Below, in pieces: positions 1,082-45,919 of a stretch of 64,000 nt of DNA. A program made the position numbers and the translations under genes. The notes under the pieces were generated by a model. It was given only the letters and a program-made list of their open reading frames with translations, ran no database searches and was not told the DNA's origin. How positions within the stretch are numbered: the stretch's first letter is position 1; each line of letters opens with the position of its first letter. The DNA is from a virus: IMG/VR virus record IMGVR_UViG_3300025288_000013, positions 1-64,000 of that record; one strand, written 5' to 3'.

Positions 1082-4000
1082 TTATATTTTAGAACCATAT
1101 TCGTTTATTACCTCAACAATTTCTGTATCATTTAACATACCTACAGCTTCTAAAATTTCTTTTTGATTACTTTTGTCCAAATTACCAAACTTAATCAAAG
1201 ATTCTGAATCTTCTTTCAACATTTCTAACTCTGGATTTTCATCAAGTATTTTTTGTGATGCGTTAGCAACAGCAACCACATCAGCATTTTCTTTAAGTAT
1301 TCTAAGGGTTTTATTTCTTAATGAATTGTTTGATTCTTGTTCCAACAACCTTATGTGTTTTGATGCTGTTTCACAAAATTTTGACACTCTTTCAAGTTCT
1401 GATTCCATCATAGCAATCTTTTCAGCTTGTTCTGTTAACAGTGTGTTTACATTTTTTCTGTAAAAATCTGCACCTTTTTGAGTGATTTCATAATTAAATG
1501 GTACACCGCCACTAAGCAAACCATCTTTTACCAATTTATCATAGTCGTTTTTTAATTTTTTAATTCCATCACCTTTAACACCGAACCACTCAATTAAACC
1601 GCTCATGTGCCTACCGTTGGTACTAATGATTGGTGCCAGCAATTTAATTGCTGAACCAATATCTTCTGGTGATTCTGTTAATAATGTGTCACTATCTTCG
1701 GCTTCTGTTTCAACAATATAAACCTCGCCAGTTTCGCCATTTTCAACCATAATCATTTCTTCATTTTCTGAAATAACTGTGTAATCAATATTGTCCTGAT
1801 CATCTGTTATACCATGAATTTCAATACTATTTTCGTCAGTTTCAACCATCGTAACCTCTTCATCAGTTTCAACCTCTTCAATAGAGTCATCGAGATTAGC
1901 CATTTCTTCATTTTCAAACAATTTTATAGCATTTGCTCTTCTTGATTTACTTCTTGAAACTGATTCAATAAGTTTTTTGACTGATTTCACTTTTTTGGAT
2001 TCTGTTAATGCTGATTTTGAAATTTCTTTAATTGATTTGAAGTTGTTTTCTTCAGCATAATCAAAGAATGCTTTTCTTGAATCTTTATCCATCATTTTGA
2101 ACAAGTCATTCATTTGTTTTCTCTGACCATTAATAAGACTTTCTTCTATATAATCAAAAAATTCAATATCAGTCGTGAAATCATGATCTTTTGCTAAATC
2201 TTTTGCTGATTTTGATTCTGTTAACATATCACATTCGTTTTCAATCATAACTTTTTTACCATAAGTATCAAAAACCCAATCTTTGAGATCGACATAATCT
2301 TGATCCATGCCTTTAACAATTTCACCTTTATCAGATATAATTTGTAAAGATTTGGCAAAAGTGTTGGATATTCTATCAATGATGCCAGCCTTTTTGCCCT
2401 CTCTTACTTCCATATCAGCCCATTTAACAACACCAGTAGGTAATTTTGATGAAAAATCATTTTCAGTTAATTTTTTATTATCCATCAATTCTTTGAACTG
2501 ATCAAGTGACAATTTAATTGATTTTCCATCTTTGTCTAATATTCTGTTAGTACCATCATACTTAGATAAAGTGTATTCACCAGAACCAACAACAGTACCA
2601 TCTGACAATGTTTTATCTTTTGGTATACGTATTTTATCACCAACTGTTTCAGTTAATTTTATTGATTCATCATCTGTTTCAAACAATTTTTCTGTTTTAT
2701 CAGTTAATCCGCCAAGTTTTTTTAATTCAGCCTTAGCACCATCAGCATCTTTTCTAATTTTGTCAGCCTTATCATTATCACCATCTGCAAGAGCATTTCT
2801 CCAAGCATTAGCCATCCTTGATAATTTTTCTCTTAGGTTAAGAATTTCTGTATCATTAGCATTTTCTGTTAGTTCTTCAGTTTCCACAACAAGTATGTCA
2901 CCTGTTTCTTCGTTTTCAACCATTAATGTTTGATCGCCAAATTCATCAACTTCTGTTTCAGAAATAACTGAATAAGTTGTTGGTTCTTCATTAACACCAA
3001 CGATTTCAACGTGATTTTCATCGGTTTCAGTTATTTCAACTGTATCATTGATTTCAACATCTTCAAGAGTTTTATCAAGTTTAGCTATTTCTTCTGATTC
3101 AAACAATCTAATGGCTTTACCTCTTTTAGAAATGTTTTTTGACACAGATTCAACAAGACGTTTTACAGATTTTACTTTGATTGTTTTCATGTTTTCTGTT
3201 AGTTTTACCGATTCAAACAAAAATTCATAAAAATCTGGATCAATATTCCAAGCATTTTTAATATATTTTAAAACTTCATCGGATGACATTTGCTCTATAT
3301 TTTCATTATCATAATCACGAGCATCCATTTCTGATCTCAAAGCCTTTTTTATTTTTTCTCCGTCTTCACCATATTTTTTTAGAAATTTATCAAGCGTATT
3401 AGAATTTTCCGTTAATTTTATCATTTTTTCTAAACCTTTGTTGATATTTTCTTTCTTAATTTTTATGTCACCATTGGCAACAATAAAGAAATCAACACCA
3501 TTTTTAAAATTTTTTTCCAAATAATCAATTAATTCTTCAAATTTCTTGAATTTATCAATATCATGTGTTGGTTTATTGATGTGAATAGTATCTTCCATAG
3601 AGTTTTCTGTTAATTTTAATAAATCACTTAGTTCTAACTCCCCTGGAGAATCATCTTTATATATATCATCCCCATCTGGGTCTGACCAAATTTTTACTTT
3701 GTTTCCGTTTTTGTCAATAAAACTAAATTCTTTGCTGTTTTCAATATCTTTTGACGCTAATAGTTCGCTAATAGTTTTACCAACCTTTGATTTTTTTATG
3801 GTTTCATAAGCTTTGTCTATTGTTGATTCGGTTAATTCGGTTTTATCAAGATTTTCCAATTCATCAACAATTTCCATTTGTAAAGTTTCCTTTTCTTCTT
3901 CAGACATAGAATCATTTTCAACCAATTTTCTGTATTTTCTGTTGATTTTAACAGTTTCTAACAAGGCTTTTGTATTATTTGATTTTTTAGCTTTTAATCT

Positions 4001-5269
4001 TATTGATTCCAACAATTCTTTAACTTCTTCTTCTGATTTTGGTTCTTCGTTTTCAAACATGTGACCTAAACCAACCAATTCTGAAACAACTAAATCAGTC
4101 AGTTCAATGTCACCACCTTTGCTTTTTATATAATCTTCCAAATCTTTAACTTTTTTTATTTTGTCAGCCAATTCTTTGTCAGCCACAATTTCTTTTGCGA
4201 TTCCTTTTTCAACGCTATCAGTTGATCCAGTTTCAGTCAATTTTTTGTCTAAAAGTTCAATTTCATCAATTATTTTTTCCTCTTCAGCGGTTTTTTCCTC
4301 TTCAGGCATAGAGTTATTTTCAACCAATTTTTTGTATCTTGTTTTGACACGTTTTGCTTCAAAAAGCACTTTCATGTTTTTCACAGTTTTTGCCTTTCCT
4401 CTAATAGATTCAATCATTTCCAATAATGGATCATCTTCGTCTTCAACTATTTCCCAAGATTCCTTGTTTTCGTTATACATAACTTCAGTTTTAGTACCAT
4501 CGATGTCAATCTTAGAAAACCATGCACCGTTATTTTTATGGGGTTTTTCCAATAAATTGTGTTCAGCACCATTAATTATTATGGCTTCATTTCCATTATA
4601 TTCTGCTATATTCATTTCTGTTAATTTTTGGTTATCTATTTTATTTTTTGGTACAATTTTTACTGATTCTGTTAAATTTTCTCCGCTCTTAGCATCATAA
4701 ACTCTTAATGTTGTACCACCCATACCACCAGATCCAACAACATCATATGTATAAAGCGTATCAAGATAAGCCTCACTTGTATCTTCGTTTAAATATCCTA
4801 TTGCTCTTGAAGAAATTGAAAGAATCCCACCATTTTCAAGAACAACTATTAAATCATAACCACCGCCAATAAGTGTTGGTATTATGGTTAATCTAATATA
4901 ACAACAATCTTCTTCTTCATCATACCACAATTTATTTATGATACCACAAATTTCTTTTGTTTTTGCTATGAAATCATCTTCCTCGTTTGGGTGGTCGGCT
5001 GATGAAAATAATCTACCATCTTCGGCAAGTTTGGCTATTCTATCAAATTCTTCAAGATAGCTTTCTTTATTGTAAAATCTTTCATTTGACGACCACCCAT
5101 TTTTAAAATCAATACATTTTCCCTCAAGAACGACAGAATCCTTGTTCTTTAAGTTTGAATTGACTAAATTAGCTGATTCGATAAGTTTTTTAGTAACTTT
5201 CTTCTTGTCTACAACTTTTAAACTAGCACCATCTTCGAAAAGTATTGTAATTTTTTTTGATTTGCTCAT
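1082..5269 (-). CDS. Prohead protease (T4 gp21-like) fused to a ~1200-aa acidic scaffold/core polyprotein
   Basis: N-terminal ~190 aa has NERFY, SADHP, ISSRAIG and YTYDVV (gp21/U9 His-Ser-Asp motifs). The remainder is acidic with many LTE/LVE/LFE motifs and internal duplications. Confidence 0.85.
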   Translation of the reverse strand: MSKSKKITILFEDGASLKVVDKKKVTKKLIESANLVNSNLKNKDSVVLEGKCIDFKNGWSSNERFYNKESYLEEFDRIAKLAEDGRLFSSADHPNEEDDFIAKTKEICGIINKLWYDEEEDCCYIRLTIIPTLIGGGYDLIVVLENGGILSISSRAIGYLNEDTSEAYLDTLYTYDVVGSGGMGGTTLRVYDAKSGENLTESVKIVPKNKIDNQKLTEMNIAEYNGNEAIIINGAEHNLLEKPHKNNGAWFSKIDIDGTKTEVMYNENKESWEIVEDEDDPLLEMIESIRGKAKTVKNMKVLFEAKRVKTRYKKLVENNSMPEEEKTAEEEKIIDEIELLDKKLTETGSTDSVEKGIAKEIVADKELADKIKKVKDLEDYIKSKGGDIELTDLVVSELVGLGHMFENEEPKSEEEVKELLESIRLKAKKSNNTKALLETVKINRKYRKLVENDSMSEEEKETLQMEIVDELENLDKTELTESTIDKAYETIKKSKVGKTISELLASKDIENSKEFSFIDKNGNKVKIWSDPDGDDIYKDDSPGELELSDLLKLTENSMEDTIHINKPTHDIDKFKKFEELIDYLEKNFKNGVDFFIVANGDIKIKKENINKGLEKMIKLTENSNTLDKFLKKYGEDGEKIKKALRSEMDARDYDNENIEQMSSDEVLKYIKNAWNIDPDFYEFLFESVKLTENMKTIKVKSVKRLVESVSKNISKRGKAIRLFESEEIAKLDKTLEDVEINDTVEITETDENHVEIVGVNEEPTTYSVISETEVDEFGDQTLMVENEETGDILVVETEELTENANDTEILNLREKLSRMANAWRNALADGDNDKADKIRKDADGAKAELKKLGGLTDKTEKLFETDDESIKLTETVGDKIRIPKDKTLSDGTVVGSGEYTLSKYDGTNRILDKDGKSIKLSLDQFKELMDNKKLTENDFSSKLPTGVVKWADMEVREGKKAGIIDRISNTFAKSLQIISDKGEIVKGMDQDYVDLKDWVFDTYGKKVMIENECDMLTESKSAKDLAKDHDFTTDIEFFDYIEESLINGQRKQMNDLFKMMDKDSRKAFFDYAEENNFKSIKEISKSALTESKKVKSVKKLIESVSRSKSRRANAIKLFENEEMANLDDSIEEVETDEEVTMVETDENSIEIHGITDDQDNIDYTVISENEEMIMVENGETGEVYIVETEAEDSDTLLTESPEDIGSAIKLLAPIISTNGRHMSGLIEWFGVKGDGIKKLKNDYDKLVKDGLLSGGVPFNYEITQKGADFYRKNVNTLLTEQAEKIAMMESELERVSKFCETASKHIRLLEQESNNSLRNKTLRILKENADVVAVANASQKILDENPELEMLKEDSESLIKFGNLDKSNQKEILEAVGMLNDTEIVEVINEYGSKI

Positions 5270-5300
5270 TCTTGATTATATTTTCAGTATTTATTGTAGT

Positions 5301-5329
5301 TGTAACAATATTATTTGCCTATGGTTTTT
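5301..5329 (+). promoter_or_regulatory. TGTAACAA-N15-GTT promoter (HD hydrolase/clamp loader operon)
   Basis: One of 13 exact-spacing copies. Confidence 0.8.
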
Positions 5330-5349
5330 ATAAAACAAAATTCAATTCT

Positions 5350-5955
5350 ATGAATAAAAATGTTCTTAAGGGTATCCATAATACAAATCCTGATTTATGC
5401 AAGGATGGTGTAATAACATGTGGTAATCTTATGCCATATGATCTTATTAATTTTGATAAAAGTATGGTAGATATGGATTTTATGATAAATTCTGTATCAA
5501 AAATAAACAGATACAATGGTCACAACAAACACAAAAACGGTTATTCTGTGGCACAACATTCGCACATAATGGCTATGTCTGCTTTAATGTGCTATGGTGA
5601 CATAGAACTGGCAAGACAATGTTTGTTCCATGATTTACCAGAGGCATATGTTATGGACATGGTAAAACCCATGAAAAATCTAATGGGAAAAACATATGCT
5701 GATGTGGAAAAACATGTAGAAAAAGTTGTCTATAAATTTTTAGATTTACCAGAAAAATTGGATTGTAGAGTCAAAGAAATAGACAAAAATATGGCACAAT
5801 TCGAAATGAGTATAATTTTACATGATTCAGAAAATGTTTATGGTTCGTTTGATATTTGGTCAGCAAAAAAATCAAGAATGGAATTTTCAAGAATGGTAGT
5901 TATGTTACTTGAATTATGCAAATACCAAGATAAAAATATAGTTAATTTAAAATAA
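5350..5955 (+). CDS. HD-domain deoxynucleotide phosphohydrolase (YfdR/YfbR/DatZ-like)
   Basis: Motifs INRYNGH, YSVAQHS, LFHDLPEAYVMDMVKPMK and KEIDK. Start moved to ATG 5350, downstream of the TGTAACAA-N15-GTT site. Confidence 0.85.
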   Translation: MNKNVLKGIHNTNPDLCKDGVITCGNLMPYDLINFDKSMVDMDFMINSVSKINRYNGHNKHKNGYSVAQHSHIMAMSALMCYGDIELARQCLFHDLPEAYVMDMVKPMKNLMGKTYADVEKHVEKVVYKFLDLPEKLDCRVKEIDKNMAQFEMSIILHDSENVYGSFDIWSAKKSRMEFSRMVVMLLELCKYQDKNIVNLK

Positions 5956-10641: not shown

Positions 10642-10670
10642 TGTAACAAATCAACCTATCCACAGTTTAT
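10642..10670 (+). promoter_or_regulatory. TGTAACAA-N15-GTT promoter (gp62/deaminase operon)
   Basis: Exact motif and spacing. Confidence 0.8.
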
Positions 10671-10686: not shown

Positions 10687-11118
10687 ATGATAGACCTCTT
10701 TGGATTTGTTGATGCCCTATTCTGTAAAACTACCTGGAAAAATGTTTCTGACAATGATAAATACAAGCATTCTTACATGGTTAATAGATTTCTTTCCATA
10801 AGATACCCAATAGAGATAAATAATTGTCAAATAGTTGGACTTGGAAAAAAGAACACTATTCGATTAATGAACTATTGGCATCACATTTTGTCAAAAAGTT
10901 ATCAAAGACCCCCATTCTGGCTAAAGACAAAAAGTGGCACAAAGAAAACACAAAATGATTTATTAAAAGTGTTTGATAAAGAACATATAGCTGCTTACAG
11001 TAGAACTTATATGATCGATACCAAAACATTGAACGATTTGTGTCAATTTTTTCCAAAAGAACTTGTTGCTGATATGAAATCGTTTAATAAAAAAGACGAA
11101 TTAAAGAAAACAAAATGA
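10687..11118 (+). CDS. Clamp-loader small subunit (T4 gp62-like)
   Basis: YMVNRFLS and FWLK motifs with 143-aa size; middle-type promoter upstream. Confidence 0.55.
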   Translation: MIDLFGFVDALFCKTTWKNVSDNDKYKHSYMVNRFLSIRYPIEINNCQIVGLGKKNTIRLMNYWHHILSKSYQRPPFWLKTKSGTKKTQNDLLKVFDKEHIAAYSRTYMIDTKTLNDLCQFFPKELVADMKSFNKKDELKKTK

Positions 11119-12116
11119 ATTTAACAAGAAACGACATATTATTATTAGATAAGTCTGACTTACACGCCCACTTGGGTTCTATGGTCGGCAGCAAAAGGCT
11201 TTGGGAACTTGCACACGAACAAGGATTGAAATTACCAACAAAAGATTTTAGAAAATTCAATGATATAATAAGTGGGACTAATGATAGTGGATTAAATCAT
11301 AAAAAGTATTTGAATAAGTTCAATCTTACACAAAAAATACAAGGCTCACCATTAGCTGTTGAACAAAGTGTATTTAATGCCATTTCTGAATCTTATTTGA
11401 ATGATAACATAACACTTCTTGAATTAAGATTTAATCCATTCCTAAGAAACAGATCTGGGTTTTATGATGTTGACATGGTTATCTCCCATGCGTGTATTGG
11501 CTTGATTCGTGCAATGTCTATATATCCAGTAAAAGCTGGCATAATAATAAGCACCGATAGGTCGTTTGACAAAAAATTGACAAACATATTAGCCAAGAAA
11601 GCCATAAAATATAAAAACATTGGCGTAATTGGTTTTGATATGAGTGGAGGAAATGTTTCTGAATTTAACATAAAAGATTTCGAATCAGCATTTAAAATGG
11701 TGAAAGAAGCTGATATGGGTACAACAATCCACACGGCTGAAGTTGCTAACATATCTTTGGATGAAACCAAGTATATAGTTAAAAATTTTGATATCGATAG
11801 AATTGGTCATGGAATAAGAATCATTGAAGATATAAATTTGTTGACATACATAAGTTCAAAGAGGATACATTTAGAGATTTGTCCAACAAGTAATGTTATA
11901 ACAAAATGTGTAAATAATTATAAAGATTTTAATAAAATTTTGAACATTTTACAAATGAATCATGTTGATATTAGTATAAACACTGATGGGTGTGTATTTC
12001 TAAATACATCTGTTACAAATGAATATGACAAATTGCATGACATCGGTTTTGTTTATGACATTGAGCAGATAAAAGAATTAGAACAATCATCCATAAAAGC
12101 ATCATTTATAAGATGA
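11115..12116 (+). CDS. add: Adenosine/AMP deaminase family protein (atypical)
   Basis: DLHAH, ELRFNP, GFDMSG, IHTAE, RIGHG, HLEICPTSN and INTD motifs. Confidence 0.9.
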   Translation: MNLTRNDILLLDKSDLHAHLGSMVGSKRLWELAHEQGLKLPTKDFRKFNDIISGTNDSGLNHKKYLNKFNLTQKIQGSPLAVEQSVFNAISESYLNDNITLLELRFNPFLRNRSGFYDVDMVISHACIGLIRAMSIYPVKAGIIISTDRSFDKKLTNILAKKAIKYKNIGVIGFDMSGGNVSEFNIKDFESAFKMVKEADMGTTIHTAEVANISLDETKYIVKNFDIDRIGHGIRIIEDINLLTYISSKRIHLEICPTSNVITKCVNNYKDFNKILNILQMNHVDISINTDGCVFLNTSVTNEYDKLHDIGFVYDIEQIKELEQSSIKASFIR

Positions 12117-12355
12117 AAAATAATGAGAAAATAGAGATAAAGGGTTCATACCTTAATTATATACAATCGTTGATAGACAAATCACCAAATTTCTTTAAAT
12201 ACCAACAAACCATATTGAATTCTGTTAAAAAAACGAACGGTAAGGTTGAAAATGATGATTATTTTGTTATAACAAGTAGACAACTAAATGCTATAAAAAA
12301 TGTTGTGGGTGGAAAATTGAAAGATGAACAATTAAGATACAGCAGCAAAAATTAA
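12113..12355 (+). CDS. Hypothetical protein
   Basis: ATGA-coupled to the deaminase gene. Confidence 0.55.
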   Translation: MKNNEKIEIKGSYLNYIQSLIDKSPNFFKYQQTILNSVKKTNGKVENDDYFVITSRQLNAIKNVVGGKLKDEQLRYSSKN

Positions 12356-34024: not shown

Positions 34025-34351
34025 TTATTTTATTTTATATATAACATCTGATATAACATAATATGTTTTGTCTATCTTTATATGAGTAGGTATTATCAAT
34101 TCATTGTATATGACAACCACAACATTTTTTTGTTTTTCATCAGAATATTCATGTATTATCATTTTCTTTTGTTTGTTTTCTTTTGTAAATGAAGAAAAAA
34201 TAAAAAAAGATTGTTCTCCAAACAAATTTAATGTATCATTTGATACCACTATGCTGCCACCATCTGTCACATAGGTAACGTCATCTGTTTGTTGGGAAAA
34301 TAGCTGTGAGGAAATTATGAGTGTTGAAATTAATGTTATTATTTTTTTCAT
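34025..34351 (-). CDS. Secreted hypothetical protein
   Basis: Signal peptide MKKIITLISTLIISSQLFSQ; cleavage before Q is a Bacteroidetes-like trait. Confidence 0.55.
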   Translation of the reverse strand: MKKIITLISTLIISSQLFSQQTDDVTYVTDGGSIVVSNDTLNLFGEQSFFIFSSFTKENKQKKMIIHEYSDEKQKNVVVVIYNELIIPTHIKIDKTYYVISDVIYKIK

Positions 34352-34812
34352 AAAAATTCTGGGGGTTTATAATTTATGCTTTTTAATATTTTATGATCTG
34401 ACACCCTATATATAACATAGATATTGTGCTTTTCATTAAACCTATAATAAGTTTTTATACCATCTAAACCATATTTATTAACTGATTCAATGGCTTCATC
34501 TATGGTTTTACAAAATTTTGACATATTGCTTTTGTGGACTTTTTCCAGATCTCCAAAAACCATATCAGCTATACCTCTTTCGTGTGCGAAACCAATGATA
34601 ACATATATTAAATCAGCTATGGCATCTCTTTGTTCAATATGATTGTTATTTATTGTCGCCATTGATAATTCGAAAAATTCTTCTTCTATCAAGTCAAGTC
34701 TAAGATTTGTTCTTTCTTCTGACATGTCTGTCAATTTATTGGAAATTGGTTGTTCACCACATTCCATGAATTCTCTTACCATACTAATTAGTTTGTTCAT
34801 TTTATTATTCAA
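34348..34812 (-). CDS. MazG-like all-alpha NTP pyrophosphatase
   Basis: LIEEEFFEL, DAIADLIYV, VHKSNMSK and KILKS. Confidence 0.85.
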   Translation of the reverse strand: MNNKMNKLISMVREFMECGEQPISNKLTDMSEERTNLRLDLIEEEFFELSMATINNNHIEQRDAIADLIYVIIGFAHERGIADMVFGDLEKVHKSNMSKFCKTIDEAIESVNKYGLDGIKTYYRFNEKHNIYVIYRVSDHKILKSINYKPPEFL

Positions 34813-38602: not shown

Positions 38603-39262
38603 ATGATAAAAAAAGAAAAAATAAGATTTGGTCTTGAAAGAATAACCAATACGCATTGTTTTATAAAAACTTATATAAATGGCGTTATAGAATATGCAAA
38701 TGTTTCTGATGGTATTTCTAGTGGGTTCAACTTTATACCAGAGGAAGAGTATGATACAATAAATCACTATTTTGTTGAAAAGAAAATTGTTCTTGTTGGC
38801 GGAGGTGCTTGTGGTAAGGATTATTACAAAGATTATATGATTGGCGTTGGGTTGATACCGGACATATCGTACACAACAAGACAAAAAAGACAAAAAGAAG
38901 TTGATGGAGTATCATATAATTATATATCAAGAGAAAAATTTGAAAGCATGATTGTTGGAGCAGAATTTTTGCAATGGAACAAATTTGGAAATGACAATTA
39001 TTATGGTACTACAAAAGAATCATTTAAAAGCAGTGATATCTTTATAATGACACCAAATGTTCTTAATTGTATGGATAACAGTGTTAGAGAAAAATTTTTT
39101 GTCATATTTTTCGACATAGACGAAGGCTTAAGAAGAGAGAGGCTTAAGAAGAGAGGTTATTCAGATAAAGATTGTGAAAAAAGATTTGATATAGATAAAA
39201 AAACCTTTGATAATTTTAATAGCTTTGATATGGTTGTAACAAATCCAAATTTTATACCTTAG
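38603..39262 (+). CDS. gmk: Guanylate kinase-like nucleotide monophosphate kinase
   Basis: GGGACGKD P-loop, SYTTRQKRQKEVDGVSYNYIS, NYYGT and ERLKKRG. Confidence 0.85.
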   Translation: MIKKEKIRFGLERITNTHCFIKTYINGVIEYANVSDGISSGFNFIPEEEYDTINHYFVEKKIVLVGGGACGKDYYKDYMIGVGLIPDISYTTRQKRQKEVDGVSYNYISREKFESMIVGAEFLQWNKFGNDNYYGTTKESFKSSDIFIMTPNVLNCMDNSVREKFFVIFFDIDEGLRRERLKKRGYSDKDCEKRFDIDKKTFDNFNSFDMVVTNPNFIP

Positions 39263-41256: not shown

Positions 41257-42135
41257 ATGATACCATATAACCTAACAAAGGGTAATTGCAAGCCCAAAAA
41301 TAAATCAAACATATTCAGATTTATATCTGGCGGCATATTAAATTTATCAGAAGAGTTGTTTTTTGATTTATCAGAATCAGATATGTTTATATGTAGTAGC
41401 ACAAGGCAGAAAATAAAATTAGATCCGAAACAAGTTGTGAGAATCGATTGCAATTTCATAGCATTACATGATAAATGTGACAATTTTTTATTGGCAAACG
41501 CCATAAAAAATAGGACAAACGACTCCAGAATAGAGGTTAGTATAACCTCTATCGTTAATGATAATGTGGAGGATTTCTCTCTTGATATTGTTTATGAAAA
41601 CATGTTAGATGAAAATGTTTATAATTGGTCTAATTTTGATAATCAACCATATAATTATTCTATAACCAATTGGGATGAAATTGTTGGATCATGGAGTTTT
41701 TATTCTACCATTAATTCTACCACCAATATAATAATGTTTAAAGATTTTACAATTTCTGGCTATGAGTTTCAGGTTGTTAATGGTGCTGACACAATTTTTT
41801 ATGTTGAAAAAATAGAAAACAACAGTAGAATGGTTCTTGAACTTAAATACTCATCTGGGTTAATAACACTGATATCAATATCAATTAATGGCAGATTTGT
41901 CGTTGATGAAACAAAAATAGTTTATGGTTTAACTGATCAAACCAATTCAAATAGCGAGGTATTTTTTAGATATGTTAGTGTTTTTGATGAAATCATAAAG
42001 CATTTTGTATCACATTCTCTTAATAAAAAAGAATACTATATCTATAATCACAATGATTCATCAACAACAATAGATTCACTTAGTGGAACTTTGTGTGAAG
42101 ACGAAGATTTATTGTTGGATTCTGATTGTTTGTAA
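41257..42135 (+). CDS. Hypothetical late protein
   Basis: ORF with AATAAATA box upstream. Confidence 0.5.
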   Translation: MIPYNLTKGNCKPKNKSNIFRFISGGILNLSEELFFDLSESDMFICSSTRQKIKLDPKQVVRIDCNFIALHDKCDNFLLANAIKNRTNDSRIEVSITSIVNDNVEDFSLDIVYENMLDENVYNWSNFDNQPYNYSITNWDEIVGSWSFYSTINSTTNIIMFKDFTISGYEFQVVNGADTIFYVEKIENNSRMVLELKYSSGLITLISISINGRFVVDETKIVYGLTDQTNSNSEVFFRYVSVFDEIIKHFVSHSLNKKEYYIYNHNDSSTTIDSLSGTLCEDEDLLLDSDCL

Positions 42136-42146
42136 AAACAAATACT

Positions 42147-42175
42147 TGTAACAATCTAACACTACAAAGGTTTTT
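42147..42175 (+). promoter_or_regulatory. TGTAACAA-N15-GTT promoter (HU)
   Basis: Exact motif and spacing. Confidence 0.8.
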
Positions 42176-42221
42176 TATGGGTAAATAATTTAAATATTAA
42201 TCAATTAAAAACAGAAAAATT

Positions 42222-42527
42222 ATGACAAAAGCTGATTTAATTACTGGCGTAAAAGCTGCAGTAGAAAAAGAAACTGGTAAAGACGTTTCAAAAAAAATGG
42301 TAAAATCCGTAATCGATTCCACGTTGGAAGCTATTAATGGATGTATGGAAAAAGGTGAAGAATTATTGTTACAACCTGTCGGAAGATTTGGTGTAAAATT
42401 CAGAAACCCTCGTAAAGCAACTAACATGACAACTGGTGAGCCTATTGCTGTTCCAGCCAAATATGTTCCCCATTTTTCTCCAACTAGCAAATTGAAAGAT
42501 GCTGTTGCCTCACTACCTGTTGAGTAA
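42222..42527 (+). CDS. hup: HU/IHF-family DNA-binding protein
   Basis: MTKADLI, GRFGVKFRNPRKATNMTTGEPIAVPAK and FSPTSKLK. Confidence 0.9.
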   Translation: MTKADLITGVKAAVEKETGKDVSKKMVKSVIDSTLEAINGCMEKGEELLLQPVGRFGVKFRNPRKATNMTTGEPIAVPAKYVPHFSPTSKLKDAVASLPVE

Positions 42528-42549
42528 CTACAAATTTACAGTTTAAGTT

Positions 42550-42583
42550 AAAAGCCTATGGTAAAAATATCATAGGCTTTTTT
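42550..42583 (+). terminator. Rho-independent terminator after HU
   Basis: AAAAGCCTATG-loop-CATAGGCTTTTTT. Confidence 0.8.
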
Positions 42584-42611
42584 GTAACAATCTATTCATA
42601 AAACAGTTTAT
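42583..42611 (+). promoter_or_regulatory. TGTAACAA-N15-GTT promoter (primase-exonuclease-GroES-purZ operon)
   Basis: Exact motif, immediately after the HU terminator. Confidence 0.8.
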
Positions 42612-42616
42612 AACAT

Positions 42617-43666
42617 ATGTTAAACTTACAAATAGATTTCACAAAACATGATACTGAAAATGTTGTAAAAATATCAACAGATAACATAAGAAAAGAAATC
42701 GAAAGCATATTATTAAGGGTTCACACACAATCACAAAAACAAGAAGTTGTTGATAGGGATGGCGGTTTCAATATAGCTTGTCCCTTTTGTGGTGATTCAA
42801 AAGATAACCCAAACAAAAAAAGAGGAAACATATATTTGGACACAAACACGTTCAAATGCTACAATTGTACAATATGGATGCCTCTTGAGGAATTTTTCCT
42901 AAAATTCAACTCTGATGTTGGTTTTAAAATAGCCAAGTTTGATCTTGAAAATTTTGTGTCCAAAACAAAAACAAAAATTTCGTTGTATGATATATATGAT
43001 ATAGGCAACCAATACATAGAAAGAGGGTCACTAATGAAAGAAATGAAATTGAAAAATATAGTAGACGATTATAAGACGGCAAAATATTTGGAAAGTAGAA
43101 AGATAGATATAAATGATAGAAGATTGGCTGTTAATAGTTTTTCAAGAAGTATAGTATTTTTTAATATGCATGATGATAAGGTCATAGGTTTACAAAAAAG
43201 AATACATGAGCCAACAAATGGCAACAGATTCATATCATATGATTATGGTAGCATAATGGAAAAAATTATTAAAAGTGATTATGACAAAGATAGAGCCTTA
43301 AAGATAAAACGCATATCGTTACTGTATAACATATTAAATGTTGATTTTTCTAAGAAAATTAACACATTCGAATCATCAATAGACAGCCATCATTTTACTA
43401 ACAGCATTGCGTGTTGGGGTTCAAATTCCATACTTAAATTACCAAATTGTCAGTATGGCATGGATGATGACGTTGCCGGTAGGAAAGCGTCTATAAAATT
43501 ATTAAAATCTGGCTATAAAGTGTTCATGTGGGGTGAGTTCAAACATAACAATACAATTTATCGTAATTGCAAAGATTTTAATGACATATTTAAATTAAAA
43601 CCAATAAGCCAAAAAACATTTGAAAGTTATTTAACAGATTCAGAATTAGACATAATATCATTATGA
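42617..43666 (+). CDS. DNA primase (T4 gp61-like)
   Basis: ACPFCGDS...KCYNC zinc finger; TOPRIM ESSID, DDDVAG and KDFND. Confidence 0.85.
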   Translation: MLNLQIDFTKHDTENVVKISTDNIRKEIESILLRVHTQSQKQEVVDRDGGFNIACPFCGDSKDNPNKKRGNIYLDTNTFKCYNCTIWMPLEEFFLKFNSDVGFKIAKFDLENFVSKTKTKISLYDIYDIGNQYIERGSLMKEMKLKNIVDDYKTAKYLESRKIDINDRRLAVNSFSRSIVFFNMHDDKVIGLQKRIHEPTNGNRFISYDYGSIMEKIIKSDYDKDRALKIKRISLLYNILNVDFSKKINTFESSIDSHHFTNSIACWGSNSILKLPNCQYGMDDDVAGRKASIKLLKSGYKVFMWGEFKHNNTIYRNCKDFNDIFKLKPISQKTFESYLTDSELDIISL

Positions 43667-44256
43667 AAAAAACAATAATATTCGACACAGAAACAACAGG
43701 CATTGTGCCAAAAGGTATGATGTACAAAGACCCAAATTATCCAAGATTATTACAACTTGCATGGGTAATATTAGATGAAGATGGGAACGAATTAGACAAA
43801 AGAAAAAACTATATAAAACCGAATGGGTTTTTAGTACCAAACACAGAATTTCACAAAGCAAATGGTTTGACACAAGAGGTGTGTGACAAAGGTGAAAACC
43901 CAATAGACGAATTGAATTTTTTGCTTGATGCTATTGAAAAATCAGAAGTTTTGTTGGCACATAATATGTTATTTGATTATTTTATAATAGCTTCAGAATT
44001 ACACAAAAACAACATAATTAGGAAAATAGAAAGGAAACCTAAGTATTGTACAATGATGTCAACAATAGATTTTTGCCAACTACCGTCACCATATGGAAGA
44101 GGATTTAAATTTCCTCGTTTGGAAGAACTTTATAAAAAATTGTTCAACGAAACTTTTGAAAATGCACATGATGCGTTTGCTGATGTAAAGGCTACCGCAA
44201 GATGCTATGTTGAATTAAATAGACTTGGTGTACCAATAAAAGAAGTATTAAAATGA
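43663..44256 (+). CDS. DEDDh 3'-5' exonuclease (DnaQ-like)
   Basis: FDTETTG, AHNMLFD and AHDAFADV. Confidence 0.9.
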   Translation: MKKTIIFDTETTGIVPKGMMYKDPNYPRLLQLAWVILDEDGNELDKRKNYIKPNGFLVPNTEFHKANGLTQEVCDKGENPIDELNFLLDAIEKSEVLLAHNMLFDYFIIASELHKNNIIRKIERKPKYCTMMSTIDFCQLPSPYGRGFKFPRLEELYKKLFNETFENAHDAFADVKATARCYVELNRLGVPIKEVLK

Positions 44257-44624
44257 GAGTACCAGGAACCAACATAATAGTTGAACAAAATAGCGATCCA
44301 AATAAGGTTATTGGTAATATCATATTTGATCATAGCAAGAAATATACAAAAAATATGGGTGTTGTTAAATACCTTAGTAAGTTTTGTGAAACAAATCGTG
44401 GAACAATTTGTGATATAAATATTGGCGATATAGTTCACTTTTCTGATGAAGCTGGTGTATATATTGACAAAAAAAACATGAAAAACATTCTATTGATAGA
44501 TTACAGAGAAATAATACTAATATCTGAATCAGAAGAAAACGAAATTTTTGTTGGCGAGGACATGAGATTTTATTTAGAAGAGGACATAGCAAACAGACAA
44601 ATGGAAAAAACATCTAATAATTAA
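44253..44624 (+). CDS. GroES-like co-chaperonin
   Basis: GVV...INIGDIVHFSDEAG...LLIDYREII. Confidence 0.55.
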   Translation: MRVPGTNIIVEQNSDPNKVIGNIIFDHSKKYTKNMGVVKYLSKFCETNRGTICDINIGDIVHFSDEAGVYIDKKNMKNILLIDYREIILISESEENEIFVGEDMRFYLEEDIANRQMEKTSNN

Positions 44625-44635
44625 ACAAACACAAA

Positions 44636-45919
44636 ATGAAACAAACAAAACGAACAAAAACGAACAATTTCTTTAAAAATGGTAAAATATCATTTGTAAT
44701 GGATGGTGCAGCTGGTAGTTCAGGCAAAAGCTTAATATCGTCGTATTTAGTGAAACATGCTAACAATGTTGATTTTATATTATCAGCCTTTACGCCAAAC
44801 GCAAGTCACACAGTTATAGATGATGATGGCAAAGAATTTGTTTTTAAAATTTTTGCAGGTGGTTCACAATACCACGAAAAACTAAAAGCTGTTTATATAA
44901 CAGATAATGCTGCAATAGAGTTAAAAACTCTGTGGAAAGAGATTGACTATCTTGGTATACCAAAAGAAAAGGTTAGAATTTCTCCAATGTGCATGATAGT
45001 TCAACAAATAGACATTGATTATGAAGCTGGACTGTGTGATCTTGATGGAAATTATTATTCAAAGAACGAGTTGAGGGATGGTACTGTTAAAACAGGGAGC
45101 ACTTGTTCTGGTAGTGGCACTGTTTTGGCTAAAAAGGTTCTTAGAAATAAGACACTGGTAAAAGCCAAAGATGTTGAAGAACTGAAAGAGTTTTTGTATG
45201 AAATGGATGAAATAATTTCAAGACTTGAAACAGGTGATAGAGGTTTAATGGAAATGGCACAAGGGTTTCCATTGTCAGTGAATCATCACATGTTTGCACC
45301 GCATACAACAAGTAGAAATGTTACAGTTACTAATGCTATGAATGATGCTATGATACCACCAAGATTTGCTGGTAACGTTTTAATCAACTTTAGAACGTAT
45401 CCAATCAAAATTCATAGTAATAAGTATAAATGTAACAAAACCGGTAAGTTTCTTACATGGGATGAGGTGAACAAGATGAAGACTGATATTGATTATGTTG
45501 TTGTTGAATCAAATTCTGGCGACTTTTATCCTGATCAAACAGAAATGAGTTGGGATCAAATAACCAAAGAATCTGGGTCTGAAAAGAAACTCATGGAATG
45601 CACAACACTTACAAAATTACCAAGAAGAATAGCTTCATTTAGTAAACAAAATCTTGTAGAGGCAATTAGATTCAATGACACAGGTGGTCAAATTTGGTTA
45701 TGTGTTAATTTTGTTAATTATGTTGTTTCTGGAATCTATGGTGAAAGGGAGTATTTTAACTTACACATTGACTTTGAAAAATATGAAAAACTTCACAATT
45801 GGATTCATGAAAACATAACCAGAGTTATATATGCAGACAATTCTATAGACGAAACAAGAGTTTCTCTTAAATATCTTGGTACAGGTGAAAAAATCGAAGA
45901 TAGAATAGAAATGCCATAA
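44636..45919 (+). CDS. purZ: PurZ-type N6-succino-2-amino-dAMP synthase (adenylosuccinate synthetase paralog)
   Basis: GSSGKS (Ser in place of the PurA catalytic Asp), PNASHT, GSTCSG, AQGF, TTSRNVT, RTYPIK, TTLTKLPRR (Leu at the PurA Arg303 position) and NFVNY (instead of TKLD). Confidence 0.85.
   Translation: MKQTKRTKTNNFFKNGKISFVMDGAAGSSGKSLISSYLVKHANNVDFILSAFTPNASHTVIDDDGKEFVFKIFAGGSQYHEKLKAVYITDNAAIELKTLWKEIDYLGIPKEKVRISPMCMIVQQIDIDYEAGLCDLDGNYYSKNELRDGTVKTGSTCSGSGTVLAKKVLRNKTLVKAKDVEELKEFLYEMDEIISRLETGDRGLMEMAQGFPLSVNHHMFAPHTTSRNVTVTNAMNDAMIPPRFAGNVLINFRTYPIKIHSNKYKCNKTGKFLTWDEVNKMKTDIDYVVVESNSGDFYPDQTEMSWDQITKESGSEKKLMECTTLTKLPRRIASFSKQNLVEAIRFNDTGGQIWLCVNFVNYVVSGIYGEREYFNLHIDFEKYEKLHNWIHENITRVIYADNSIDETRVSLKYLGTGEKIEDRIEMP

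Follow-up and report, generated by a model that had tools for sequence, protein, structure and literature searches.

An add-type deaminase gene that recurs with PurZ in AT-rich phages and may feed guanylate into Z-genome synthesis

Introduction

Published pathways for genomes in which aminoadenine (Z) replaces adenine comprise PurZ, DatZ or a DUF550 enzyme, MazZ, the PurB and kinases of the host, and a polymerase; to our knowledge, none of them includes a purine deaminase. Here we analyze a predicted deaminase gene at positions 11115 to 12116 (+ strand) of a 64,000-nucleotide stretch of viral DNA (hereafter, the window) from IMG/VR record IMGVR_UViG_3300025288_000013, which also encodes a PurZ. 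The window covers the first 64 kb of a record that is 110 kb long, with a CheckV completeness of 64% and 30% G+C; the phage is uncultured and known solely from groundwater metagenomes, with near-identical DNA occurring in groundwater and aquifer metagenomes. An initial reading of the sequence (the original prediction) had placed deaminases outside the described Z pathways, and our full-text searching of the literature bears this out, as we found no report that connects an adenosine-family deaminase to PurZ or to aminoadenine phages. Our preferred reading, to which we give an even chance of being right, is that the gene encodes an active add-type zinc deaminase that would turn adenine nucleotides into a precursor of guanosine monophosphate (GMP), from which both the G and the Z of the phage genome would be made.

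Several described enzymes bear comparison with the window protein. Canonical ADA (E. coli Add and mouse ADA) has the same fold (template modeling [TM] score, 0.87), zinc ligands, and catalytic Glu, His, and Asp, but is only ~20 to 23% identical to it. Two ADA contacts, Asp19 to the ribose 5'-OH and Asp296 to the purine N7, are both Gly in the window protein. The N6-methyl-AMP deaminase MAPDA/ADAL (6IJM/6IJN and 8QCH) also has the ADA fold (TM score, 0.84) and a changed residue at the ADA Asp19 position; unlike the window protein, to which it is 24% identical, it has Asn there and relies on Thr98, His65, and Lys100, with Asp296 retained. Cad1 and the RdrB protein of RADAR are built around an ADA-fold core that acts on phosphorylated adenosines, but these are large, signal-activated, multidomain host effectors, whereas the window encodes a stand-alone, phage-side core of 333 residues. 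DatZ of phages S-2L and phiVC8 resembles the deaminase in its proposed role, that of keeping adenine out of the phage deoxynucleoside triphosphate (dNTP) pool; in contrast, DatZ has an HD fold and hydrolyzes dATP, and the purine ring is not salvaged.

The same size and single-domain build as in the window protein are found in the add product of the Chlamydia guaBA-add (or guaAB-ADA) cluster. This operon is described as interconverting the monophosphates of adenosine, inosine, and guanosine (AMP, IMP, and GMP) (PMC3091639; PMC7694038), and its deaminase is annotated as "adenosine/AMP deaminase," an annotation made without an assay (PMC7694038). The window protein shares a residue signature (Gly21, Asn107, Arg111, and Gly292) with copies from environmental Chlamydiales, Waddliaceae, Rickettsiales, Patescibacteria, and Weeksellaceae at 37 to 50% identity; the Chlamydiales copies compared here are environmental ones. 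Unlike the cellular cluster, the phage gene stands alone, with no adjoining guaB or guaA.

Results and discussion

The deaminase gene and its product

The open reading frame (ORF) at 11115 to 12116 encodes a protein of 333 amino acids that belongs to the adenosine/AMP-deaminase superfamily, and specifically to the subfamily found in add-guaBA clusters. The PF00962 A_deaminase profile matches residues 13 to 332 with 155.2 bits (cut-off, 27). Narrower models do not claim it: the protein falls under the cut-off of every NCBIfam adenosine-deaminase equivalog (TIGR01430, 159.3 versus 216.55 bits; the others are further below), and we found no family for it in PHROGs. The G+C content of the gene (0.30) matches that of the rest of the phage, and the gene is real and intact.

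Its translation reads D15-L-H17-A-H19-L-G21-S22, H206-T-A-E209, G231-H232-G233, and N289-T-D291-G292, so that each of the metal and catalytic motifs described as intact in the original prediction (HAH, HTAE, GHG, and NTD) is indeed there. The zinc and catalytic residues H17, H19, H206, E209, H232, and D291 correspond to mouse ADA H15, H17, H214, E217, H238, and D295. Alignment to Vibrio and mouse-type ADA likewise places Gly21 at the ADA Asp19 position and Gly292 at the Asp296 position, in agreement with the earlier statement that an Asp is gone from both HxHLDG and NTDD. An AlphaFold2 model of the protein is a confident TIM barrel [(beta/alpha)8; pLDDT, 95.6], which Foldseek aligns with structures of ADA, adenine deaminase, and MAPDA at TM scores of 0.83 to 0.88.

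The cellular subfamily and its operons

A protein search with the window deaminase returned 955 relatives: a few metagenome proteins at 51 to 78% identity and, behind them, a large cellular group at 37 to 50%, from Patescibacteria, Saccharibacteria, Chlamydiales, Rickettsiales, Acidobacteriota, Bacteroidota, and Micrarchaeota. We fetched 80 bacterial and archaeal relatives and compared them with three canonical ADA outgroups. The window protein has Gly21, Asn107, Arg111, Asn112, and Gly292, and each of these five residues is conserved throughout the cellular set (80 of 80); the outgroups have Asp at position 21 and Asp or Asn at position 292, and they lack the Arg at position 111. The original prediction had cautioned that its substitutions might simply be traits of a bacterial subfamily, and for Gly21 and Gly292, as for Asn107 and Arg111, this is what we find.

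When we clustered the four genes on either side of the deaminase at these 80 loci, the dominant neighbors were IMP dehydrogenase (GuaB; n = 46) and GMP synthase (GuaA; n = 37), with IMP dehydrogenase almost always directly adjacent to the deaminase and on the same strand. Among the 62 loci that have at least two genes per side, 38 have GuaB, 33 have GuaA, and 32 have both, an arrangement known from the Chlamydia guaBA-add operon. Patescibacteria, Chlamydiales, Rickettsiales, Weeksellaceae, and Micrarchaeota are the sources of these loci. From this context we infer that the subfamily carries out the first step of a cellular add-guaB-guaA module that runs from A through I and X to G. The adjoining IMP dehydrogenases, at locus L094 (6020-7111) and at other cellular loci, are short (~343 to 401 amino acids) and apparently lack the CBS subdomain.

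The gene content of the cells that carry the module bears on its substrate. Bona fide HGPRT is present in 1 of 36 genomes with the full module and in 8 of 14 controls; the corresponding counts for a PNP-family phosphorylase are 8 of 36 and 14 of 14. The 36 full-module genomes are incomplete metagenome-assembled genomes, in which the absence of an enzyme is soft evidence. Because most of them lack the enzymes that turn inosine or hypoxanthine into IMP, conversion of AMP to IMP appears to be favored over a nucleoside route in these cells: an inosine or hypoxanthine product would be stranded in most full-module genomes, while AMP to IMP would feed GuaB in all of them.

The active site can be read in the same direction. 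The original prediction held that ADAL-type enzymes without the first Asp use nucleoside monophosphates; this accords with published work on MAPDA, which acts on nucleoside monophosphates, and in AtMAPDA the phosphate is bound by Thr98, His65, Lys100, and Asn17, the last of which takes the place of ADA Asp19 (PMC6451127). In our alignment (HMMER; 6J23/6IJN), Asn17, Thr98, His65, and Lys100 fall on Gly21, Asn107, Gln73, and Phe109 of the window protein, and the invariant Arg111 sits two residues beyond the position aligned with Lys100. The features that mark MAPDA/ADAL (Asn at the Asp19 position, the Thr98/His65/Lys100 set, and Asp296) are thus not those of the window protein, and the subfamily pattern agrees only loosely with a nucleotide substrate. 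Taken together, the cellular context and the remodeled 5' pocket point to a nucleotide substrate, with IMP as a product that would be useful for GMP synthesis.

Co-occurrence with PurZ in phages

The original prediction had asked whether the deaminase travels with purZ. An unbiased first search of 2.9 million viral contigs, for which an alignment of the subfamily served as the query, found the deaminase in eight records. Six also encode a full-length orthologue of the window PurZ (36 to 46% identity), and the two that do not are fragments, 14% and 28% complete. When divergent phage copies served as the seeds of a second scan, one complete record of 167 kb with the subfamily deaminase and a long PurZ was added, as were three PurZ-less fragments of at most 40% completeness. 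PurZ is therefore present in 7 of 7 viral carriers that are at least 56% complete. The subfamily deaminase occurs in 0 of 50,697 GenBank phage records. Five matches to canonical ADA among those records, including OR846589.1, MT835589.1, and CAKLQH020000046.1, were rejected as likely host contamination: they are host-type enzymes, and three lie in records marked UNVERIFIED while two are contigs of one assembly, with one contig ending in a tRNA. Three "provirus" records (G013, G077, and G078) with a canonical, high-GC or host-type ADA were also set aside as host genes.

All full-length phage copies, with identities as low as 28%, have kept the catalytic residues, a sign of purifying selection on the phage deaminase; one partial metagenome copy has a gap at H206/E209. 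The signature is kept as well, except in one copy (L008) that has Ser at both Gly positions.

The phage copies of the subfamily form a long-branched basal grade in an LG+G4 tree, but 11 or 12 of 14 group in one clade under a site-heterogeneous mixture model, and an approximately unbiased (AU) test does not reject a single clade of all 14 (P = 0.495). A 178-kb record that is 92% complete (IMGVR_UViG_3300025005_000002; loci L152 and L155) carries a different combination. Its deaminase, 25% identical, is of an ADA lineage with Asp21, His111, and Asn292, in which the ribose-binding Asp is kept; its PurZ is of the short, classical type, with GSEGKGK and Ser at the PurA Asp position. Because a different ADA lineage here sits with a different PurZ lineage, this second pairing is independent, and the pairing has arisen more than once.

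PurZ phages with the deaminase have G+C contents of 0.29 to 0.37, plus one of 0.45, versus 0.37 to 0.57 for complete PurZ phages without it (Mann-Whitney P = 0.028, with phylogeny ignored). This AT-rich bias fits a higher demand for Z; it fits a greater need to remove A equally well.

Around the deaminase itself, neighbors in eight other phages are not conserved and mostly lack a family, and we could identify no operon partner among them. In one phage the deaminase lies ~2 kb from purZ. In another (G006) it lies ~1 kb from a gene for a purB-like lyase, with a TauE/SafE-type membrane protein encoded just downstream of the deaminase. Such purB-like lyases (PF00206) are encoded in three phages with both PurZ and the deaminase (G001, 108978-109715; G003, 99823-100590; G006, 41964-42629); none was seen in the 64%-complete record of the window.

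PurZ and associated genes in the window

The window PurZ (44636 to 45919, + strand; 427 amino acids) is of the long type. It matches phrog_1211 at 1e-32, and its closest solved relatives are phiVC8 PurZ (6FM1/6FKO; 1.6e-22) and S-2L PurZ (7ODX), with archaeal PurA behind. Its P-loop reads GSSGK, compared with GSTGK in phiVC8 PurZ; Ser28 aligns with the phiVC8 Ser, is invariant across six orthologues, and occupies the position of the PurA catalytic Asp. On these grounds the assignment of the window to a PurZ phage holds. The gene ends a block, including 43663-44256 and 44253-44624, that also encodes a primase, an RNase T-type exonuclease, and a GroES-like co-chaperonin; in another phage (L010), a weak GroES-like ORF (11071-11466) directly follows the deaminase. 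The PurZ of a related phage (L004; IMGVR_UViG_3300015607_004608, 3521-5893) is 790 amino acids long because of an intein inserted after about residue 225, which carries a LAGLIDADG homing endonuclease (PF14890 and PF03161). Inteins commonly lodge in conserved sites of important proteins.

Two other components named in the original prediction are confirmed only in part. An HD-domain hydrolase gene (5350 to 5955, + strand; PF13023 HD_3 and PF12917) encodes a YfbR-like candidate dAMP/dATP hydrolase. It was called DatZ, but the protein scores 103 bits against phrog_318 (deoxynucleoside monophosphate [dNMP] 5'-phosphatase) versus 21 bits against phrog_7076 (dATP triphosphohydrolase), and its sole match in the PDB is 2GZ4, with no DatZ structure matched; it thus resembles dNMP phosphatases of the YfbR type more closely than dATPases, and its identity as DatZ is putative. 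Likewise, a MazG-like, all-alpha nucleotide pyrophosphohydrolase is encoded at 34348 to 34812 (- strand; PF01503 PRA-PH, 45 bits; phrog_671 at 2e-28), but comparison with solved structures gave no match to MazZ, and the family is that of PRA-PH/nucleotide pyrophosphohydrolases. The window also encodes a guanylate-kinase-like kinase (38603 to 39262, + strand; PF00625, 56 bits; phrog_1815 at 2e-31) and a family B polymerase (PolB).

The deaminase gene sits between two ORFs and overlaps each by 4 nucleotides (ATGA), so that the three form a unit. Upstream lies a 143-amino-acid ORF (10687 to 11118, + strand) that belongs to phrog_35599, which has no assigned function; a 27%-identical homologue is encoded near a clamp loader and an HD gene in another phage (L007). 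Downstream lies an 80-amino-acid ORF (12113 to 12355, + strand) with no family. The unit is preceded by a promoter-like motif, TGTAACAA-N15-GTT, at 10642 to 10667 (+ strand). This motif occurs 18 times in the window versus 4.1 expected, a count reached in 0 of 100 shuffles, at sites that include 5301, 10642, 31121 (- strand), 38557, 42583, and 47774. Copies also stand ahead of the HD, PolB, and gmk-like genes and of the block that runs from primase through exonuclease and GroES to purZ, and the motif probably represents a promoter class of this phage. Since an extended HD ORF starting with TTG at 5257 would contain the copy at 5301, the HD gene probably starts with the ATG at 5350.

A proposed route from adenylate to guanylate and Z

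PurZ starts from dGMP, so both Z and G are derived from guanylate. A genome of 30% G+C in which A is fully replaced has ~35% Z and ~15% G among its bases, and this share of Z implies a high demand for guanylate. Adenine nucleotides, in turn, would be abundant, useless, and harmful to a PurZ phage. We propose that the deaminase shunts the host adenylate pool into IMP, from which host GuaB and GuaA would then make GMP; the most likely reaction is AMP to IMP, with dAMP perhaps a substrate also. The onward route would be reduction to dGDP and dGTP, hydrolysis to dGMP by the MazG-like enzyme, and then PurZ, PurB, and the Gmk-like kinase, yielding dZTP. AMP deamination would also lower the supply of dATP. 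A ribonucleotide substrate would avoid a futile cycle, in which dZMP (a 2,6-diaminopurine nucleotide) would be deaminated to dGMP. That the deaminase shares its promoter-like motif with genes of replication and nucleotide metabolism counts for this proposal.

Several results weigh against it. Fold comparison does not separate the substrate classes, as ADA, adenine deaminase, and MAPDA all look alike against the window model. Position 73, which aligns with MAPDA His65 in a region of weak alignment, is Glu in 67 of 80 bacteria, and therefore fits a phosphate pocket poorly. We found no assayed member of the add-guaB-guaA subfamily in the PDB or the literature, and for this reason its substrate is deduced from context. 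The PNP in eight of the full-module genomes, and the few loci with PNP and a phosphoribosyltransferase beside the deaminase, make a nucleoside route possible there. On the phage side, neither guaB nor guaA was found in the five records searched (that of the window and four others), and the feed of GMP would therefore depend on the host enzymes.

In the reverse count, only 7 of 32 viral records with the window type of PurZ carry the subfamily deaminase, and among the complete ones, two have it and six do not; the gene is therefore an optional, dispensable accessory of PurZ phages rather than a core part. For example, one phage (G008) carries a very divergent deaminase (28% identity), whereas five complete records of ~150 kb (G027 to G031), whose PurZ regions are near-identical and four of which share its sample, have none, a pattern suggestive of a recent loss or gain. 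Moreover, one old acquisition followed by long retention and several losses could explain the subfamily data; because the phage copies may descend from that one acquisition, the co-occurrence counts are not independent events.

Alternative explanations

The gene might instead serve purely as an adenine sink: dA or dAMP released by the HD hydrolase would be deaminated, its rephosphorylation to dATP would be blocked, and the product would be waste. This differs from the proposed guanylate supply mainly in the substrate and in the reuse of the product, and we consider it unlikely, though it is the main rival. The YfbR-like hydrolase whose best PHROG is a dNMP 5'-phosphatase would suit it, the link to PurZ suits exclusion of A as well as supply of G, the AT-rich bias does not discriminate, and the deaminase that partners PurZ in record G076 is an ADA with the ribose-binding Asp, as expected of a nucleoside deaminase. 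The subfamily itself, however, has lost the Asp that holds the nucleoside 5'-OH in ADA, its cellular role ahead of guaB-guaA is productive, and the HD protein is DatZ only putatively. Of the first inference in the original prediction, then, removal of adenine is retained in view of the PurZ link; DatZ as the source of dA is not, nor is disposal of free dA alone, given the indications of a nucleotide substrate.

It is less probable still, in our view, that the deaminase is a general purine-salvage helper or a passenger inherited within one phage lineage, in either case functionally unconnected to Z synthesis. A single acquisition can explain the subfamily copies, gene neighborhoods are not conserved, and many PurZ relatives do without the gene. 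A passenger fits poorly, however, with an active site that stays intact in such divergent copies, with PurZ in every sufficiently complete carrier, with the absence of the subfamily from GenBank phages, and with a second ADA lineage that accompanies a second PurZ lineage.

We regard as quite improbable a triphosphate deaminase that, like Cad1 or RdrB, would convert dATP or ATP to dITP or ITP in place of DatZ and leave the dITP to be cleared by the MazG-like enzyme. Some enzymes with the ADA fold do use ATP, structures of Cad1 reach TM scores of ~0.8 to the window model, and the window phage has no clear DatZ; but Cad1 and RdrB are large and multidomain, the RdrB model was not matched (E = 0.068), the logic of the cellular operon requires IMP rather than ITP, and the MazG-like gene is 22 kb distant.

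The second inference of the original prediction, a purine swap in which dAMP is converted to dIMP and built into DNA to give Z:T and I:C pairs, gained nothing from our analysis and is scarcely credible: viruses with deoxyinosine DNA exist in Campylobacter, going by the title of Crippen et al. 2019 (cited in PMC10516641), but in hundreds of cells the subfamily product is an intermediate passed to IMP dehydrogenase, a gene optional among close PurZ relatives suits an accessory booster instead, and we see neither a kinase dedicated to dIMP nor a gene for dGTP exclusion other than those needed by the ordinary Z route, which itself explains the kinase and MazG that the swap had been invoked to explain. 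A counterdefense role, through deamination of signaling nucleotides, was dropped because neither sequence nor context pointed to it.

Implications

What is described here is the known Z pathway extended by a purine-shunt enzyme from a known subfamily, not a new DNA chemistry. About half of the DNA bases in Z phages derive from guanylate, and the recurrence of the deaminase with PurZ in large, AT-rich phages suggests that these phages face a second problem beyond the exclusion of dATP, namely guanylate supply. We tentatively suggest, with somewhat less than even confidence, that a small, bacterial-type AMP deaminase forms an accessory fourth module of Z-genome synthesis, which would both supply guanylate and starve the dATP pool. 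The question of function is shared with the cells that carry this subfamily, among them many symbionts and parasites with reduced genomes, such as Chlamydia species. If our reading is true, it would provide the first biochemical function for the widespread add of add-guaB-guaA clusters in Chlamydiae, Patescibacteria, and DPANN archaea.

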